DNA of 12,330 bases from a virus, in UHGV virus genome UHGV-0317858; one strand, given 5' to 3'. Below are positions 2,140 through 12,330 of this stretch, piece after piece (position 1 is the stretch's first letter; each line of letters starts with the position of its first letter). A program made the translations under genes and the position numbers. The notes below the pieces were generated by a model. That model saw nothing but the letters and a program-made list of their open reading frames with translations, did not search any database and had not been told where the DNA came from.

Positions 2140-2174
2140 CCCCAGTAGCACTGGCTGCTGGGGTGCGTTTTATT
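2140..2174 (+). terminator. Rho-independent terminator downstream of trkG
   Basis: 10-bp stem CCCCAGTAGC (2140-2149) pairing with GCTGCTGGGG (2154-2163) with one G-U wobble, loop ACTG, followed by TGCGTTTTATT. Confidence 0.5.
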
Positions 2175-2190: not shown

Positions 2191-2985
2191 ATGAGCGAGA
2201 AATTAAAGATAGTCTATCGCCCATTACAAGAATTGTCACCGTATGCGCACAACGCCAGGACGCACAGTACTGAGCAGGTGGCACAACTGGTAGAAAGTAT
2301 TAAGCTATTCGGCTGGACTAATCCGGTGCTGATTGACGAAAAGGGCGAAATTATTGCGGGTCACGGTCGTGTTATGGCGGCTGAAATGCTCAAAATGGAT
2401 TCTGTTCCGGTCATTGTTCTGTCTGGCCTGACGGATGAGCAGAAAAAGGCGTACCGCCTGGCAGATAATCGCCTGCCGATGAATGCTGGCTGGGATGAAG
2501 ATCTGTTGCGGATGGAGCTGTCGGACCTAATCAATGCTGATTTTGATGTCTCCCTGACAGGCTTCATCCCGACAGAAATTGATGAACTGTTGACGGATGT
2601 TTTGCCCGGTACAGGAAATGAGGAGGAGCCGTATACGACGAAAATTGATACGCCTGTTTATGAGCCGTCGGGCGGTAAACCGGATATCAGTGAACTGTAC
2701 GACGATACGAAAACTCAGGAGCTGATCAGCCGGATACGTTCGGCGTCCCTTGATCCTGATATTGAGAAATTCCTCCTGTGTGCGGCAGAACGTCACACAG
2801 TGTTTAATTTCAGCAGAATTGCGGACTATTACGCTCATGCCCCCGCTGAAATTCAGTGCCTTTTCGAGGAGTCGGCGCTGGTGATCATTGATTATCAGCA
2901 GGCTATTGAAAATGGATTTGTCCGAATGACGCAGCGCATGGTGGAGATCATGCATGGCGGGGAGGAGGAGGAGGAATATGCGTGA
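2191..2985 (+). CDS. ParB/Srx-like N-terminal domain protein (ParB-like nuclease or DNA-binding fold) with an acidic C-terminal region of unknown function ending in poly-Glu
   Basis: 264 aa. The N-terminal 90 residues (YRPLQELSPYAHNARTHSTEQVAQLVESIKLFGWTNPVLIDEKGEIIAGHGRVMAAEMLKMDSVPVIVL...AYRLADNRL) carry the hallmarks of the ParB N-terminal/sulfiredoxin fold (hydrophobic strand, then G-H-x-R, then AA). The C-terminal region has no motif I recognise. The gene ends ...[11 protein letters not shown] and its stop overlaps the next start. Confidence 0.75.
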   Translation: MSEKLKIVYRPLQELSPYAHNARTHSTEQVAQLVESIKLFGWTNPVLIDEKGEIIAGHGRVMAAEMLKMDSVPVIVLSGLTDEQKKAYRLADNRLPMNAGWDEDLLRMELSDLINADFDVSLTGFIPTEIDELLTDVLPGTGNEEEPYTTKIDTPVYEPSGGKPDISELYDDTKTQELISRIRSASLDPDIEKFLLCAAERHTVFNFSRIADYYAHAPAEIQCLFEESALVIIDYQQAIENGFVRMTQRMVEIMHGGEEEEEYA

Positions 2986-3712
2986 TGATTTTTGCGCCTT
3001 TATTCTGACTCACGGGCGACCGGACAAAGTTCTGACTTACCGGACGTTGCGTCGTGCTGGCTATACCGGGAAAATTTTTATCGTTGTTGATGATGAAGAT
3101 AAGACACGGCATCAGTACATGGCTGAATTTGGTGAACAGGTGCTGGTATTTTCCAAAGCCGATATTGCCAGTCGTTTTGACGAAGCCGATAATTTTGGTG
3201 ATCGCCGCTCAATTTTTTACGCCCGTAATGCCTGTTTCGACCTGGCAAAACTGGTCGGGTGTAAATACTTCATTCAGCTCGATGATGATTATCACGAGTT
3301 CCAGTTTCGGGTGGATCGCAACTATGACCAGGCCTATTTCCCGATAAGGAAACTGGATGCGATCCTTTCTGAAATGCTGGCGTATTACGAATCAATACCC
3401 GCGCTTTCCATCGCTATGTCGCAGGGCGGGGATTTTCTTGGTGACAATGGCGGCCATGCTTCGTGGGTGAAACGCAAGGCAATGAACAGCTTTATCTGTT
3501 CGGTTGATCGACCGTTCTCATTCATGGGGCGCATTAACGAGGATGTGAATACGTACACGAATCTCGGTCGCTGTGGTGAATTGTTTATGACGATCGGTGC
3601 TGTCCAGTTAGGGCAGAAACAGACGCAGAAAAACAGCGGCGGAATGACCGAGCTGTATCTGGATTCCGGAACCTGCCGCCGCGCCCGTTCAATATCCGGA
3701 TGCGCAGGATGA
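2978..3712 (+). CDS. GT-A-fold (family 2-like) glycosyltransferase-like protein, probably C-terminally disrupted at the junction with J-derived DNA
   Basis: From ATG 2978 ([43 protein letters not shown]...[13 protein letters not shown]...) the spacing and composition fit the GT-A signature: N-terminal beta-strand, then hydrophobic-VVDD-x-D at residues 36-41, then a DxD motif (DDD at residues 102-104) about 60 residues later, as in SpsA-type enzymes. The GGAGGAGGAGGAGGAA run just upstream of ATG 2978 serves as the Shine-Dalgarno; the ORF-track start at 2954 lacks one. The last 13 or so codons appear to be J-gene DNA read out of frame. Confidence 0.55.
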
Positions 3713-6639
3713 CGCCGGACAGCACCACAGACCAGCTGCAGAACAAAACGCTCTGGTCGTCATACACCGAAATCATCGATGTGAAACAGTGCTACCCGAA
3801 CACGGCACTGGTCGGCGTACAGGTGGATTCGGAGCAGTTCGGCAGCCAGCAGGTGAGCCGTAATTATCATCTGCGCGGGCGTATTCTGCAGGTGCCGTCG
3901 AACTATAACCCGCAGACTCGGCAATACAGCGGTATCTGGGACGGAACGTTTAAGCCAGCATACAGCAATAACATGGCCTGGTGTCTGTGGGATATGCTGA
4001 CCCATCCACGCTACGGCATGGGGAAACGTCTTGGTGCGGCGGATGTGGACAAATGGGCGCTGTATGTCATCGGCCAGTACTGCGACCAGTCAGTGCCGGA
4101 CGGCTTTGGCGGCACGGAGCCGCGCATCACCTGTAATGCGTACCTGACCACACAGCGCAAGGCGTGGGATGTGCTCAGTGATTTCTGCTCGGCGATGCGC
4201 TGTATGCCGGTATGGAACGGGCAGACGCTGACGTTCGTGCAGGACCGACCGTCGGATAAGGTGTGGACCTATAACCGCAGTAATGTGGTGATGCCGGATG
4301 ATGGCGCGCCGTTCCGCTACAGCTTCAGCGCCCTGAAAGACCGCCATAATGCCGTTGAGGTGAACTGGATTGACCCGAACAACGGCTGGGAGACGGCGAC
4401 AGAGCTTGTTGAAGATACGCAGGCCATTGCCCGTTACGGTCGTAATGTTACGAAGATGGATGCCTTTGGCTGTACCAGCCGGGGGCAGGCACACCGCGCC
4501 GGGCTGTGGCTGATTAAAACGGAGCTGCTGGAGACGCAGACCGTGGATTTCAGCGTCGGCGCAGAAGGGCTTCGCCATGTACCGGGCGATGTTATTGAAA
4601 TCTGCGATGATGACTATGCCGGTATCAGCACCGGTGGTCGTGTGCTGGCGGTGAACAGCCAGACCCGGACGCTGACGCTCGACCGTGAAATCACGCTGCC
4701 ATCCTCCGGTACCACGCTGATAAGCCTGGTTGACGGAAGTGGCAATCCGGTCAGCGTGGAGGTTCAGTCCGTCACCGACGGCGTGAAGGTAAAAGTGAGC
4801 CGTGTTCCTGAGGGTGTTGCTGAATACAGCGTATGGGGGCTGAAGCTGCCGACGCTGCGCCAGCGCCTGTTCCGCTGCGTGAGTATCCGTGAGAACGACG
4901 ACGGCACGTATGCCATCACCGCCGTGCAGCATGTGCCGGAAAAAGAGGCCATCGTGGATAACGGGGCGCACTTTGACGGCGAACAGAGTGGCACGGTGAA
5001 TGGTGTCACGCCGCCAGCGGTGCAGCACCTGACCGCAGAAGTCACTGCAGACAGCGGGGAATATCAGGTGCTGGCGCGATGGGACACACCGAAGGTGGTG
5101 AAGGGCGTGAGCTTTATGCTTCGCCTGACCGTGGCAGCGGACGACGGCAGTGAGCGGCTGGTCAGCACGGCCCGGACGACAGAAACCACATACCGCTTCA
5201 GGCAGCTGGCGCTGGGGAACTACAGGCTGACAGTCCGGGCGGTAAATGCGTGGGGGCAGCAGGGCGATCCGGCATCGGTATCGTTCCGGATTGCCGCACC
5301 TGCAGTGCCGTCGCGGATTGAGCTGACGCCGGGCTATTTTCAGATAACCGCCACGCCGCATCTTGCCGTTTATGACCCGACGGTACAGTTTGAGTTCTGG
5401 TTCTCGGAAAAGCGGATTACCGATATCAGGCAGGTTGAAACCACAGCCCGCTATCTTGGCACGGCGCTGTACTGGATAGCCGCCAGTATCAATATCAAAC
5501 CGGGCCATGATTATTATTTTTACGTTCGCAGTGTGAACACCGTTGGCAAATCGGCATTCGTGGAGGCTGTTGGTCAGCCGAGTGATGATGCATCCGGCTA
5601 TCTGGATTTTTTCAAAGGCGAGATAGGGAAAACCCATCTGGCTCAGGAGCTGTGGACGCAGATTGATAACGGTCAGCTTGCGCCTGACCTGGCTGAAATC
5701 AGGACGTCCATTACGGATGTCAGCAATGAAATCACGCAGACCGTCAATAAGAAACTGGAAGACCAGAGTGCGGCAATTCAGCAGATACAGAAGGTTCAGG
5801 TTGATACAAATAATAACCTGAACAGCATGTGGGCTGTGAAGCTGCAGCAGATGCAGGACGGACGCCTTTATATCGCGGGTATTGGTGCCGGTATTGAGAA
5901 CACCCCTGACGGCATGCAGAGTCAGGTGCTGCTGGCGGCGGACAGGATTGCGATGGTTAATCCTGCGAATGGCAACACAAAACCGATGTTTGTTGGTCAG
6001 GGCGATCAGATATTCATGAACGACGTGTTCCTGAAACGCCTGACGGCCCCCACCATTACCAGCGGTGGAAATCCACCGGCATTTTCCCTGACACCGGACG
6101 GAAAGCTGACTGCTAAAAATGCGGATATCAGTGGCAGTGTGAATGCGAACTCCGGGACGCTCAACAACGTCACGATTAATGAGAACTGTCAGATTAAGGG
6201 GAAACTGTCAGCCAATCAGATTGAAGGCGATATTGTCAAAACAGTGGGTAAGGCTTTCCCGCGGGACTCCCGGGCACCGGAGCGGTGGCCATCAGGGACC
6301 ATTACCGTCAGGATTTATGACGATCAGCCTTTTGACAGGCAAATTGTTATTCCAGCGGTGGCATTCTGCGGCGCTAAACATGAGCGGGAGAATAACGATA
6401 TTTATTCGTCATGCCGCCTGATAGTGAAGAAAAATGGTGCTGAAATTTATAACCGTACCGCGCTGGATAATACGCTGATTTACAGTGGTGTTATTGATAT
6501 GCCAGCTGGTCACGGCCACATGACGCTGGAGTTTTCGGTGTCAGCATGGCTGGTAAATGACTGGTATCCCACAGCAAGTATCAGCGATTTGCTGGTTGTG
6601 GTGATGAAGAAAGCCACCGCAGGCATCAGTATCAGCTGA
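3700..6639 (+). CDS. J: Tail tip attachment / host specificity protein J, N-terminally truncated remnant (C-terminal roughly 980 residues)
   Basis: The translation ([76 protein letters not shown]...) matches lambda gpJ from an internal position as I recall it, including the C-terminal receptor-binding region, which here diverges from lambda. The frame is open only back to a stop at 3577-3579 and no N-terminal J sequence is present. ATG 3700 is an internal Met, so expression as an independent protein is uncertain and the locus may be annotated as a pseudogene. Confidence 0.85.
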
Positions 6640-7370: not shown

Positions 7371-10300
7371 ATGGCAGTACGGATTTCAGGTGTACTGAAA
7401 GATGGCGCAGGTAAGCCGATACAAAACTGCACCATTCAGCTAAAGGCCAGGCGCAACAGCACCACGGTGGTGGTGAACACAGTGGCCTCAGAAAACCCGG
7501 ATGAAGCCGGGCGTTACACAATGGACGTCGAGTATGGTCAGTACAGCGTCAGTCTGTTGGTGGAGGGATTCCCGCCGTCACACGCCGGGATTATCACCGT
7601 ATATGAGGACTCAAAGCCGGGCACACTGAATGATTTCCTCGGTGCAATGACGGAGGATGATGTCCGGCCAGAGGCACTGCGCCGTTTTGAACTGATGGTG
7701 GAAGAGGTGGCGCGTAACGCGTCCGCAGTGGCACAGAACACGGCAGCCGCGAAGAAGTCAGCCGGCGATGCCGGCACATCTGCCCGTGAGGCGGCAACCC
7801 ATGCGACTGATGCTGCAGGCTCAGCACGCGCAGCCAGCACGTCAGCCGGACAGGCCGCTTCGTCGGCTCAGTCAGCGTCTTCCAGCGCAGGAACGGCATC
7901 AGCAAAGGCCACTGAAGCATCAAAAAGTGCTGCCGCTGCAGAGTCCTCAAAAAGCGCGGCGGCCACCAGTGCCGCTGCGGCAAAAACGTCAGAAACGAAT
8001 GCGGCAGCGTCACAACAATCAGCAGCCACTTCAGCATCCACCGCGACCACGAAAGCGTCAGAAGCTGCCACCTCAGCCCGGGATGCGTCGGCTTCAAAAG
8101 AGGCGGCAAAATCATCAGAAACGAGCGCAGCCTCGAGCGCCAGCAGCGCAGCTTCCTCGGCAACGGCGACAGCAAATTCTGCGAAGGCGGCAAAAACGTC
8201 CGAGACGAACGCCAAGGCTTCTGAAACGGCAGCGGGACAGAGTGCCTCAGCTGCGGCAGGCTCAAAAACAGCGGCTGCGTCGTCTGCCAGTGCCGCGTCA
8301 ACAAGTGCCGGGCAGGCCTCAGCCAGTGCCACCGCCGCCGGAAAATCGGCAGAAAGTGCTGCATCGTCCGCTTCAACAGCCACAACGAAGGCTGGCGAAG
8401 CCGCTGTACAGGCCAGCGCAGCAGCGAGGTCTGCTTCCGCAGCGAAGACATCCGAAACGAATGCGAAAGCGTCGGAAACCCGTGCAGAATCCTCAAAAAC
8501 GGCAGCCGCATCGTCCGCCAGTTCGGCAGCGTCATCGGCATCATCTGCGTCTGCTTCAAAAGATGAGGCGACCAGACAGGCGTCAGCAGCGAAGGGCAGC
8601 GCCACGACGGCATCCACGAAAGCAACAGAGGCGGCAGGCAGTGCGACGGCAGCATCTCAGAGCAAAACTGCTGCTGAATCCGCTGCGACCCGTGCGGAAG
8701 CTGCTGCTGATCGTGCTGAAGAGATTGCCGGTGCAGTTGCGATGGAAGACGCAAGCCTTACAACTAAAGGTGTTGTGAAACTTAGCAGTGCTGTTGATAG
8801 CACCAGTGAATCGCTGGCCGCAACGCCAAAAGCAGTTAAAGCAGCCAATGACAATGCGAATAGCAGGGTGCCATCTAACCGAAAAGTTAACGGAAAAGCA
8901 CTGACTGCGGATATAACATTAACGCCGAAAGATATTGGTACTTTAAATTCAGTAACGATGTCTTTCTCTGGCGGGGCTGGGTGGTTCAAACTGGCTACGG
9001 TTACCATGCCACAAGCGAGTTCCATCGTTTACATCGCATTGATTGGTGGCGCTGGTTACAACGTCGGTTCCCCACATCAGGCAGGCATTTCAGAACTGGT
9101 TCTACGAGCAGGCAATGGAAACCCCAAAGGAATTACCGGGGCTTTGTGGAAGCGTACAGCCGTCGGATTAACGAATTTCGCCTGGATCAACACATCCGGC
9201 GATACATATGATATTTACGTTGAGATTGGCAATTATGCGACTCGTGTAAATATCCATTGGGATTGTACTGCAAATGCGACAGTTTCTATTTATACATCGC
9301 CAACATATTCAGCGAGTAAGCCTTCCAGCGTTACCGATGGTGTTGTTTATACGATGTATAGCACACATCAGAAACCGACGCCGTTAGATATTGGAGCACT
9401 GCCAACAACCGGAGGAACAGTTTCAGGTCCGTTGTCTGTTACAGGTGGATTAACTGGTTCATTGAATGGTAATGCAAGTACAGCCACGAAATTGCAGACG
9501 GCAAGATCTATCGGTGGAGTTGTTTTCGACGGTTCTGCAAATATTAACCTTCCAGGTGTAAACACTACGGGTAATCAGAACACCACTGGTAATGCTGCAA
9601 CTGCTACAAAACTTCAGACTGCAAGAAAAATATCCGGTGTTCCATTTGATGGTTCTACTGATATCACTTTAACCGCCGCGCATGTGGCTGCTTTTGCCAG
9701 AAGAGCAACGGATGCGTATGCCGATGCGGATGGGGGCGTTCCATGGAATGCCGAATCAGGCGCTTACAATGTCACCCGCTCTGGCGACAGCTATATTCTG
9801 GTTAACTTCTATACCGGAGTCGGAAGTTGCCGGACCTTGCAGATGAAGGCGCATTACAGAAATGGTGGTCTGTTCTACCGTTCTTCAAGAGACGGTTATG
9901 GTTTTGAAAGTGGTTGGGCGCAGCTTTACACCTCGGCTCATCCTCCTGCAGAGTTTTATCCAGTCGGTGCACCAATCCCGTGGCCATCAGATACCGTTCC
10001 GTCTGGTTATGCCCTGATGCAGGGGCAGACTTTTGACAAATCTGCCTACCCGAAACTTGCTGCCGCTTATCCGTCAGGCGTGATCCCTGATATGCGTGGC
10101 TGGACGATTAAGGGCAAACCTGCCAGTGGTCGTGCCGTATTGTCTCAGGAACAGGACGGCATTAAATCGCACACCCACAGCGCCAGCGCATCCAGTACGG
10201 ATTTGGGGACGAAAACCACATCGTCGTTTGATTACGGCACTAAATCCACGAATAACACCGGGGCGCATACGCACAGTCTGAGTGGCTCTACGGGGTCTGC

Positions 10301-11299: not shown

Positions 11300-11968
11300 C
11301 TATTTTTTCCCTGAAGCGGAAAACATTACTACAGTACCTTTAATCTTGGTTTTAACATTCTCGAAATGCTCTGAGAGTATATGTGTTAAGCCTTCTTCGG
11401 AATCTTTTGTGTTTGAAAAGATGCCTTTTTGATTGTAAATGCGCATCAGTTTTTGACCGAAGCTATTGTGCACAACGCCGTCACCAAGAATTGTGGCTCC
11501 GTATAGAGTTCCATCGTCAGTTAAGGCCTGCGCCGCATTGCGTATTACACAGCTTTTTGTAGATATATTTCCAGGCAGGCAGTGAAGAAGGTAAAACATG
11601 GAAATGGAATCAAATTGACCATGTAACGCCGCGGGATAAGGTTCAAAAACATCATGGCTAATTTTATGTTTAATTTTTGATTCCCCAGCCCTTGTAGATG
11701 CCGCGTTCAGGCTAGTTTCGTTCAAATCCATTAAAGATATCAGACTACTCTCAGGTACGTGAGTAAGGTAAAACCCAGTTCCAACACCAATATCCAGATG
11801 GTTGTTACCTAAATGTTCCAGAAAGTGTGGAAGGAGGTGTTCCTTTGTAGGACATCCCCATGCAAGCCGATTTGATACTCCCAAAACCCACCAGTCATAA
11901 AGCTTTAGGGTAAGTGGTGTGTAAATTTTAGCCCCATCATCTGTGTTTTTTTTCATTAATTTCACCAT
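11300..11968 (-). CDS. Class I (Rossmann-fold) SAM-dependent methyltransferase of unknown substrate; AT-rich cargo gene
   Basis: 222 aa with a canonical motif I (HLDIGVGTGFY), an acidic residue closing beta-2 (LISLMDLNE), a motif II-like segment (FDSISMFYLLHCL) and a motif III-like segment (LTDDGTLYGATI). No DPPY/NPPY or other DNA-methyltransferase target-recognition motifs. Visibly AT-rich relative to the neighbouring tail genes, with a weak RBS. Confidence 0.6.
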   Translation of the reverse strand: MVKLMKKNTDDGAKIYTPLTLKLYDWWVLGVSNRLAWGCPTKEHLLPHFLEHLGNNHLDIGVGTGFYLTHVPESSLISLMDLNETSLNAASTRAGESKIKHKISHDVFEPYPAALHGQFDSISMFYLLHCLPGNISTKSCVIRNAAQALTDDGTLYGATILGDGVVHNSFGQKLMRIYNQKGIFSNTKDSEEGLTHILSEHFENVKTKIKGTVVMFSASGKK

Positions 11969-12024: not shown

Positions 12025-12330
12025 ATGCTGCCGCAGCATAGCGATATTGAAATAGCCTGGTATGCTTCGATACAGCAGGAGCCGAATGGCTGGAAGACCG
12101 TCATCATACAGTTCTACATCCAGGAGTTCAGTGAGTATATTGCGCCACTGCAGGATGCTGTAGATCTGGAAATCGCAACGGAGGAAGAAAGATCGTTGCT
12201 GGAGGCATGGAATAAATATCGGGTATTGCTGAATCGTGTTGATACATCAGTAGCTCTGGGTATGAAGCTGATTGTAACTCATGTTACAGTAACGGTCATT
12301 GCTATCTCGAAGGTGCAAAATGTATATTGA
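12025..12330 (+). pseudogene. Chimeric ORF carrying a Tfa C-terminal domain signature (probable tail fibre assembly gene remnant)
   Basis: 101 aa. The central segment ([38 protein letters not shown]) is a Tfa C-terminal domain, but the N-terminal 35 residues and the last 26 residues ([26 protein letters not shown]) do not resemble Tfa. The stop coincides with the window end, so downstream context cannot be seen. Confidence 0.4.
12130..12249 (+). repeat. Direct repeat copy 2 (tfa 3-prime end homologue inside a chimeric ORF)
   Basis: See copy 1; same orientation, about 1.05 kb downstream. Confidence 0.7.

Follow-up and report, generated by a model that had tools for sequence, protein, structure and literature searches.

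We found that an overlapping gene pair in a Rac-type Escherichia coli prophage remnant is a truncated copy of a known but uncharacterized phage combination, in which a TAGT-family glycosyltransferase is accompanied by a ParB-like partner. The remnant constitutes the window, i.e., the whole 12,330-nucleotide stretch of the virus genome UHGV-0317858 that we analyzed. Comparison with intact phages makes us lean toward a reading in which the pair would act as a late, two-subunit transferase that glycosylates phage DNA; the copy in the window is most likely inactive. A broken copy is ordinary prophage decay and of modest interest. The intact module is widespread in bacterial and archaeal viruses, strictly two-component, and found without the usual precursor-making enzymes, and published surveys set solitary TAGTs aside as uncharacterized.

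Organization of the window

The window carries, in this order, Rz/Rz1, trkG, the ParB-like gene (ORF1), the glycosyltransferase gene (ORF2, hereafter GT), a remnant of the tail-tip gene J, lom, stf, and tfa. The features discussed below are as follows.

578–2053, + strand: trkG, an AT-rich moron flanked by the lysis genes and the pair (Pfam TrkH, 1.1e-144)
2140–2163, + strand: terminator-like hairpin and T-run 3′ of trkG, 27 nt 5′ of the ParB-like start
2191–2985, + strand: ORF1, ParB/Srx-fold gene, intact, 264 aa
2191–2595, + strand: ORF1 ParB/Srx domain of the nucleotide-binding type, aa 1–135 (N21, S36, G57-H-G-R60, D92-N93)
2596–2685, + strand: ORF1 acidic linker, predicted disordered, aa 136–165 (pLDDT <50; motif YTxKIxxPxYEP)
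2686–2955, + strand: ORF1 helical C-terminal domain, aa 166–255, with no Pfam family and restricted to partners of this GT clade
2960–2977, + strand: GGAGG-repeat Shine-Dalgarno sequence for GT, doubling as the acidic-tail codons of ORF1
2978–3674, + strand: native part of the GT gene (ORF2), aa 1–232 of 310, TAGT-family GT-A
3664–3682, no strand: recurrent deletion-endpoint hotspot, GT codons 229–235, with the palindrome TTCCGGAA inside
3670–3674, no strand: AACCT microhomology at the deletion junction (GT ...CGGAACCT, J ...GGTAACCT)
3675–3712, + strand: 12 junk codons and a stop on the GT end, from out-of-frame J DNA
3675–6639, + strand: remnant of the J tail-tip gene, from about codon 173 (Pfam J domains; mapping to EC93 gpJ)

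The GC content of trkG is 0.33–0.41, and the gene sits at the equivalent site in EC93 and K-12. A consensus scan detected no sigma-70-like promoter between the hairpin and the start of ORF1. The ORF of the J remnant is called from an internal ATG at 3700.

The GT start codon (ATG, 2978–2980) lies within the last codons of ORF1, whose TGA stop occupies 2983–2985, giving an overlap of 8 nt. Upstream of it, GGGGAGGAGGAGGAGGAA (2960–2977) encodes the end of ORF1, GGEEEEE, and contains GGAGG motifs 3–9 nt 5′ of the GT start. The RefSeq annotation of EC93 has identical starts and an identical 8-nt overlap for the pair. An alternative in-frame GT start at ATG 2954 was rejected, as homologs begin with MRDDFC, corresponding to 2978. 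The overlapping gene pair is confirmed as real, and, since the two genes overlap, we take them to be co-translated; the translational coupling proposed in a sequence-only reading of the window was thus borne out by the overlap, the GGAGG-repeat site, and the EC93 annotation.

Both proteins belong to recognized phage families

ORF2 is a TAGT-family (PF20691) GT-A glycosyltransferase, of the same family as the T2/T6 DNA glucosyltransferase. Its match to the Pfam profile (5e-35; 121.7 bits against a cut-off of 27.5) aligns residues 8–222 with profile positions 4–205 of 205, it matches PHROG 842 at 6.8e-88, and its fold is that of GT-A enzymes. The window copy keeps the catalytic residues R14, D38/D39/D41, D102–D104, and E188–D189, and R14, D102–D104, and E188–D189 are invariant across the GT family. 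A PDB sequence search returned no solved structure related to GT, and none of the PADLOC defense models matched it.

ORF1 falls in the ParB/Srx superfamily (PF02195) by both sequence and fold. It scores 26.9 bits against Pfam ParB_N (cut-off 26.3) and matches PHROG 620, “ParB-like partition protein,” over its full length (1.4e-89). Over its first ~140 residues, it also matches the ParB domain found in phage fusions with DNA methyltransferases (PHROG 498, 9e-50), and a PADLOC hit to MTase_II (6.5e-38) covers only the ParB domain of that type II methyltransferase model. The AlphaFold2 model comprises a ParB/Srx domain, a low-confidence acidic linker (aa 136–158), and a helical C-terminal domain, for which neither Pfam nor PHROG holds a separate family. 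Box II reads G57-H-G-R60 and box III D92-N93, compared with the CTP-binding and hydrolysis motifs GERRxR and ENxxR in ParABS proteins; G57, D92, and N93 are conserved in the ORF1 family, and the box-II arginine is missing in two distant members. The linker residues Y148, T149, K151, P155, Y157, and P159 are invariant. ORF1 is 99.6% identical to the EC93 protein, and exactly this protein was present on 57 contigs.

We considered whether ORF1 is a canonical ParABS partition protein and rejected this: no helix-turn-helix (HTH) was found in the AlphaFold2 model or by Pfam, parA was absent from all neighborhoods examined, and the score against the partition model TIGR00180 (37.3 bits) was below the cut-off of 58.45.

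Both fold assignments made from the letters alone held up, the ParB/Srx N-terminal fold through Pfam ParB_N, PHROG 620, and the AlphaFold2 model, and the GT-A glycosyltransferase through the PF20691 match, the fold, and the catalytic residues. The same reading knew of no characterized function for such a pair. The families do have names, in Pfam (TAGT), PHROG (620 and 842), and RefSeq (“ynaK,” and “GREB1-related protein” for the E. coli GT).

A conserved two-gene module beside terminase genes

Searching with GT by tblastn recovered homologs in phages of E. coli, Salmonella, Lactobacillus gasseri, L. delbrueckii, Nocardia, Porphyromonas, and Vibrio (jumbo phages), and in the haloarchaeal virus HHTV-2. 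The bacterial hosts of phages with the module span Proteobacteria, Firmicutes, Actinobacteria, and Bacteroidota, and the GT family comprises 1,500 clusters at 50% identity. All 89 of the 89 loci holding a GT homolog (56–100% identity, plus the distant phage cases) had a ParB-like homolog directly 5′ of GT, separated from it by −4 to +59 nt and full length where the locus extended far enough. Conversely, GT was found downstream of the ParB-like homolog in three of three cases. The C-terminal domain of ORF1 occurred in 28 of 50,697 phage records and was directly upstream of GT in all 28.

The ParB-like gene, GT, and then the small and/or large terminase gene follow one another in Lactobacillus phages phi jlb1 and c5, Nocardia phage NTR1, a Porphyromonas phage, three metagenome or genome contigs, and three enterobacterial prophages (Hafnia and Yersinia among these). 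The two genes are also adjacent in HHTV-2, with the annotated terL ~2.9 kb downstream. In every one of these phages, prophages, and contigs, HHTV-2 included, the two genes overlap, by 4–29 nt. The terminases beside the pair are of several unrelated types (three different types in the metagenome contigs), and in phage c5 the pair comes directly after cos. The sequence-only reading had suggested checking whether the neighborhood is conserved: the pair is indeed conserved across phages, and its setting is terminase genes rather than accessory cargo.

The Vibrio jumbo phages depart from this setting. There, the pair is located among replication genes (primase, exonuclease, helicase), not beside a terminase, and the partner adjoining GT is a 139-aa protein made up of the linker and C-domain only (55% identity). 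Because this partner has no ParB N-domain, the linker with its YTxKIxxPxYEP motif and the C-domain emerge as the constant partner of GT; the ParB N-domain would then be an added module. Taken together, the comparisons indicate that ParB-like gene and GT form an obligate, overlapping two-gene module, almost always beside terminase genes.

Among the best 150 cluster representatives, we found no natural ParB–GT fusion proteins; the long GT forms in this set were tandem GTs, GT with a methyltransferase, GT with a sulfotransferase, and E. coli deletion fusions. In some viable Lactobacillus phages, GT survives only as a fragmented pseudogene or remnant, indicating that it is dispensable.

A deletion truncated the glycosyltransferase in the window

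In intact EC93, the gene order is lysis genes, trkG, the ParB-like gene (264 aa), GT (310 aa), a 69-aa ORF, terS, terL, portal, and head and tail genes. The window follows EC93 up to position 3674 and then continues in J, so that 17,282 bp are missing relative to EC93, AACCT microhomology marks the junction, and GT codon 232 is joined out of frame to approximately codon 173 of J. This arrangement is the product of a microhomology-mediated deletion that removed terS through most of the tail genes. Given the junction, the native part of GT ends at residue 232 and is followed by 12 junk residues.

The pair was left on the upstream side of a deletion that took the morphogenesis genes and was therefore not inserted there. 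The earlier claim that it is inserted cargo, with its adjacency to J as the sign of insertion, does not survive: intact Rac-like prophages, and phages quite unlike them, carry the pair natively and directly 5′ of terS/terL, and in the window it meets J because of the 17.3-kb deletion that also truncated GT.

Complete proteins of this clade include a conserved C-terminal segment, of which the window GT lacks residues 233–288. The lost segment is the conserved basic C-terminal ~55 residues, which lie outside the Pfam domain and are among the best-conserved GT residues from E. coli to the haloarchaeal virus; K235, F237, Y238, P244, R258, H260, H261, and W265 are invariant or nearly so in E. coli, a Lactobacillus phage, and the haloarchaeal virus. 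Since this tail is missing, the window copy is most likely inactive, judging by conservation. The 232 residues that remain span the complete Pfam domain and may confer residual activity.

The exact junction of the window was absent from all 5,426 complete E. coli genomes, although 39 E. coli contigs from elsewhere encode the exact truncated GT protein. Of the 5,426 genomes, 1,580 contained at least a portion of the pair and 889 contained at least 80% of it. The E. coli pair has been eroded by many independent deletions, with the adjoining trkG kept. The K-12 locus is a further-decayed state of the pair: ynaK of the K-12 Rac prophage (b1365), at the locus after trkG that K-12 and the window have in common, comprises only nt 1–254 of the ORF1 gene (87 codons), whereas the window holds the complete 264-aa gene and 232 GT codons. 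ORF2 is not ydaY of K-12, a candidate we rejected as ydaY is a tail-region gene, located in EC93 between the tail tube and tape-measure genes.

Mapping the endpoints of such deletions revealed a recurrent site. In many E. coli remnants, the left end of the deletion falls in GT codons 229–235 (window 3664–3682, CTGGATTCCGGAACCTACG, which contains the palindrome noted above), and the right ends are scattered over gene I, several J positions, stf, tfa, and others (~21 different partners). About 21 independent deletions begin within these 7 codons. Counting the ~25 breakpoints first mapped between GT codons 184 and 310, 16 fall in the 7 hotspot codons, against ~1.4 expected; smaller clusters occur at GT codons 247–251 and 209–212. 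Across the GT family, the synonymous sites of the hotspot showed no extra constraint as a conserved cis element would, and any cis-acting cause would therefore be specific to the Rac lineage. Candidate causes are a packaging (pac) cleavage site and palindrome-stimulated breakage.

A proposed role in late DNA glycosylation

We propose that, in intact phages, the two proteins would be made late in infection as a two-subunit transferase. The C-domain and linker of the ParB-like protein would serve as the constant partner of GT, and its N-domain would probably link the enzyme either to DNA or to an NTP-dependent switch, comparable to ParB-activated phage thymine dioxygenases. With a nucleotide-sugar as donor, GT would glycosylate phage DNA ahead of packaging or in the course of it, and the sugar would shield the DNA from host nucleases. 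Such a late two-subunit enzyme is suggested by the strict coupling of the genes, their place beside the terminase genes, an N-domain of the methyltransferase type, and the basic tail of GT. The ParB-like partners are strongly acidic (pI 4.05–4.8), and the GT tail is basic (pI 9–10 in most members). By analogy, we infer that the ParB-like partner activates GT; the dependence of GT on its partner has a comparative basis in their strict adjacency, the overlap of their genes, and a C-domain that is always accompanied by GT.

The TAGT family was reportedly defined by Iyer et al. in 2013, who are also said to have discussed ParB. Several published observations fit a DNA-directed role. Characterized PF20691 members glucosylate DNA (PMC13216743, PMC13390438), and the T2/T6 enzyme of this family puts a second glucose on glucosyl-5hmC in DNA (PMC13216743; PMC13390438). 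Uncharacterized solitary TAGTs are carried by 288 of 753 GT-bearing phages (PMC13216743). GT-A phage enzymes glycosylate 5hmC produced by a methyltransferase and TET (10.1101/2023.12.21.572611), ParB-like genes have been recorded beside such phage GTs (10.1101/2023.12.21.572611; PMC8256090), and a proposal relayed in PMC8256090 has ParB steering modification enzymes to DNA at packaging. A phage thymine dioxygenase requires, for its action on dsDNA, activation by ParB-like proteins that have a nucleotide-binding domain (NBD), linker, and C-terminal domain (CTD) and lack a DNA-binding domain (PMC13229309), and prophages typically carry ParB folds as fusions with DNA methyltransferases (PMC12704722). 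The DNA-directed module suggested in the sequence-only reading accordingly fits, since GT belongs to a family of DNA-base glycosyltransferases and phage ParB-like activators have been published (PMC13229309); the DNA-modification role is the part that we infer.

The weak point of the DNA reading is the acceptor, as no TET/JBP or hydroxymethylase was found near the pair or in phages phi jlb1 and c5. Known TAGT-type enzymes require a hydroxyl on the modified base. Precomputed Pfam annotation of the three contigs contained no TET/JBP or thymidylate-synthase-like gene, neither was among the families matched by at least 2 of 130 ORFs in 12 further loci, a threshold that may have missed single weak occurrences, and the full annotations of the phi jlb1 (38 kb) and c5 (32 kb) genomes list no TET/JBP or hydroxymethylase. 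Throughout the loci and small genomes examined, GT was thus found without a TET/JBP enzyme or a dCMP or dUMP hydroxymethylase beside it. The acidic ParB-like partner without a DNA-binding domain, and the loss of the box-II arginine in some members, also count against DNA as the target.

A more specific version, which we consider quite unlikely, is that phage DNA would be glycosylated at the onset of packaging without any hydroxymethyl-pyrimidine precursor, on a canonical base, a DNA end, or the backbone, with the hotspot as a phage-specific cleavage or loading site. If true, this would be a new DNA-modification chemistry, spread over many hundreds of phage lineages and open to direct testing in E. 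coli. Intact Rac-like E. coli prophages offer a simple system for asking whether a TAGT can modify DNA without 5hmC/5hmU and whether ParB-like partners regulate enzymes besides dioxygenases.

Alternative explanations

The main rival to the DNA reading is that GT glycosylates protein, either the Tyr/Thr residues of the partner’s linker motif or a packaging or virion protein encoded by adjacent genes. A precedent exists in GREB1, a relative of the GT domain that O-GlcNAcylates protein (PMC7968844). However, the characterized PF20691 members act on DNA, the jumbo-phage pair keeps company with a primase, an exonuclease, and a helicase, the partner’s N-domain is of the subfamily that occurs in DNA-methyltransferase fusions, and GT has a basic tail; we regard a protein acceptor as possible, though unlikely.

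The constant place directly 5′ of terS/terL, with the c5 pair right after cos, could also indicate a packaging accessory that, for example, marks or recognizes the packaging start site, the GT-fold protein being mainly structural, and the deletion-endpoint hotspot in the GT gene could then mark a cleavage site. This is difficult to reconcile with catalytic R, DDD, and ED residues that are invariant across the GT family, with jumbo-phage copies away from any terminase, with hotspot synonymous sites free of constraint across the family, and with viable Lactobacillus phages whose GT is fragmented or a remnant. We consider it very improbable.

Finally, although trkG, a moron, adjoins the pair, ORF1 has stayed intact, 39 E. 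coli contigs encode the exact truncated ORF2 product, and the GT Pfam domain is complete, accessory cargo that functions in the lysogen (defense, anti-restriction, or host DNA modification) is hardly credible for the window, because the pair belongs natively in the late packaging region, follows a terminator-like hairpin with no promoter-like site, has no PADLOC defense-system match, has been eroded by many independent deletions in E. coli beside a retained trkG, and has lost the conserved GT tail. The defense role suggested from the letters alone is likewise not upheld: the PADLOC signal reflects a methyltransferase ParB domain only, and the pair decays with its prophage while trkG is kept.

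Comparison with known systems

The closest characterized relatives of GT are the T2/T6 beta-glucosyl-HMC-alpha-glucosyltransferase and other TAGT enzymes, with which it has in common PF20691, the GT-A fold, and the R...DDD...ED pattern; similarity to the T-even enzymes is absent at the BLAST level. Unlike the T2/T6 enzymes, GT is found without a 5hmC/5hmU pathway and without an alpha- or beta-glucosyltransferase alongside, always has a ParB-like partner, and carries an extra conserved basic C-terminal segment. Eukaryotic relatives are known as well: the GT domains of the kinetoplastid base-J glucosyltransferase (JGT) and of GREB1 are described as related to phage TAGT (PMC7968844, 10.1101/2023.12.21.572611). 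The substrate of JGT is 5hmU made by JBP and that of GREB1 is a protein; neither has a ParB-like partner, in contrast to GT.

For ORF1, the 5mYOX-associated ParB activators (e.g., ParB176; PMC13229309) provide one parallel. Like them in architecture, ORF1 consists of an NBD, an unstructured linker, and a CTD, with no HTH or other DNA-binding domain. Both adjoin a gene for a DNA-modifying enzyme, putative in the case of ORF1, and in the published survey the 5mYOX ParB clusters often also contain GTs and terminases (PMC13229309). The partners differ: that of the 5mYOX ParB is a dioxygenase, whereas no cognate 5mYOX dioxygenase stands beside the ORF1 family, whose neighbor is always a TAGT glycosyltransferase. 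The other parallel is the fusions of ParB with N6/N4 DNA methyltransferases (PF02195 with PF01555; PMC12704722), which are also typically prophage-borne and whose ParB domain the N-domain of ORF1 strongly resembles; here, by contrast, a sugar transferase stands in place of the methyltransferase and is a polypeptide of its own.

Transcription signals ahead of the gene pair

Upstream of the ParB-like gene and its glycosyltransferase (GT) neighbor, one candidate transcription signal was found:

Window 2140-2163: terminator-like, G+C-rich hairpin with a T-run, between trkG and the ParB-like gene

A consensus scan of the interval between trkG and the ParB-like gene returned no sigma-70-like promoter ahead of 2191. 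Taken together, these observations are consistent with a pair that would be expressed solely through antiterminated late transcription.

Recurrent deletions within the GT gene

Examining Rac remnants in E. coli revealed approximately 21 independent deletions whose left ends fall within the same seven GT codons and whose right ends were scattered over many different tail-gene sites:

Window 3664-3682: deletion-endpoint hotspot, GT codons 229-235, around the palindrome TTCCGGAA

Besides the window, instances of the hotspot comprise comparison loci L002, L053, L056, L057, and L085 and comparison proteins P0023-P0045 and P0384-P0392. Further, smaller endpoint clusters were detected in the GT gene at codons 247-251 and 209-212. 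No synonymous-site conservation was found at the hotspot across the wider GT family.

Counterparts in K-12 and EC93

Two genes of the intact EC93 prophage were compared with the remnants:

L096 18952-19311: ydaY, with the tail tube gene on one side and the tape-measure gene on the other
L001 10789-10998: 69-aa ORF, between the GT gene and terS, missing from the window

In the K-12 MG1655 region 1425377-1425980 (L092), ynaK retains only nt 1-254 of the ParB-like gene. We rejected K-12 ydaY as a GT remnant, given its location among the tail genes of EC93. The 69-aa ORF matches the middle of the terminase small-subunit family PHROG 309 (1e-17), and homologues of 82-85 aa occupy the same position in Hafnia, Yersinia, and metagenome loci.

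The 3' region of the window, past tfa, stands where K-12 has pinR:

11300-11968 (-): gene for a class I SAM-dependent methyltransferase (Methyltransf_12/23), low in GC, on the strand opposite tfa
12025-12330: ORF whose middle part carries a further copy of a stretch of ~36 residues from the tfa product (...LLNRVDTS)

Very long antisense ORFs were also observed within J (4090-5637 (-), 515 aa) and stf (7594-8754 (-), 386 aa), most likely by-products of the coding sequence opposite them, which is high in GC or encodes Ala/Ser repeats.

The pair in other phages

In some enterobacterial phages, three added genes separate the ParB-like gene from the lysis genes (L099 1113-3173; L054 3912-6014):

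MptE-like protein, 181 aa (faint match)
302-aa protein, no function assigned
Methyltransf_23 protein, 205 aa

In addition, our 50%-cluster library included fusions of the GT to a SAM methyltransferase (P0247, P0254) and to a sulfotransferase (P0287). These added genes and fusions suggest that, in some lineages, the transferred sugar is further tailored.

In Vibrio phage pv27 (L093 4459-4878) and five related jumbo phages, the ParB-like partner is represented by a 139-aa homologue (55% identity) that consists of its linker and C-domain only. The gene lies directly upstream of the GT, in the vicinity of primase, exonuclease, and helicase genes, and its product is, in effect, a natural dissection of the part of the partner that constantly accompanies the GT.
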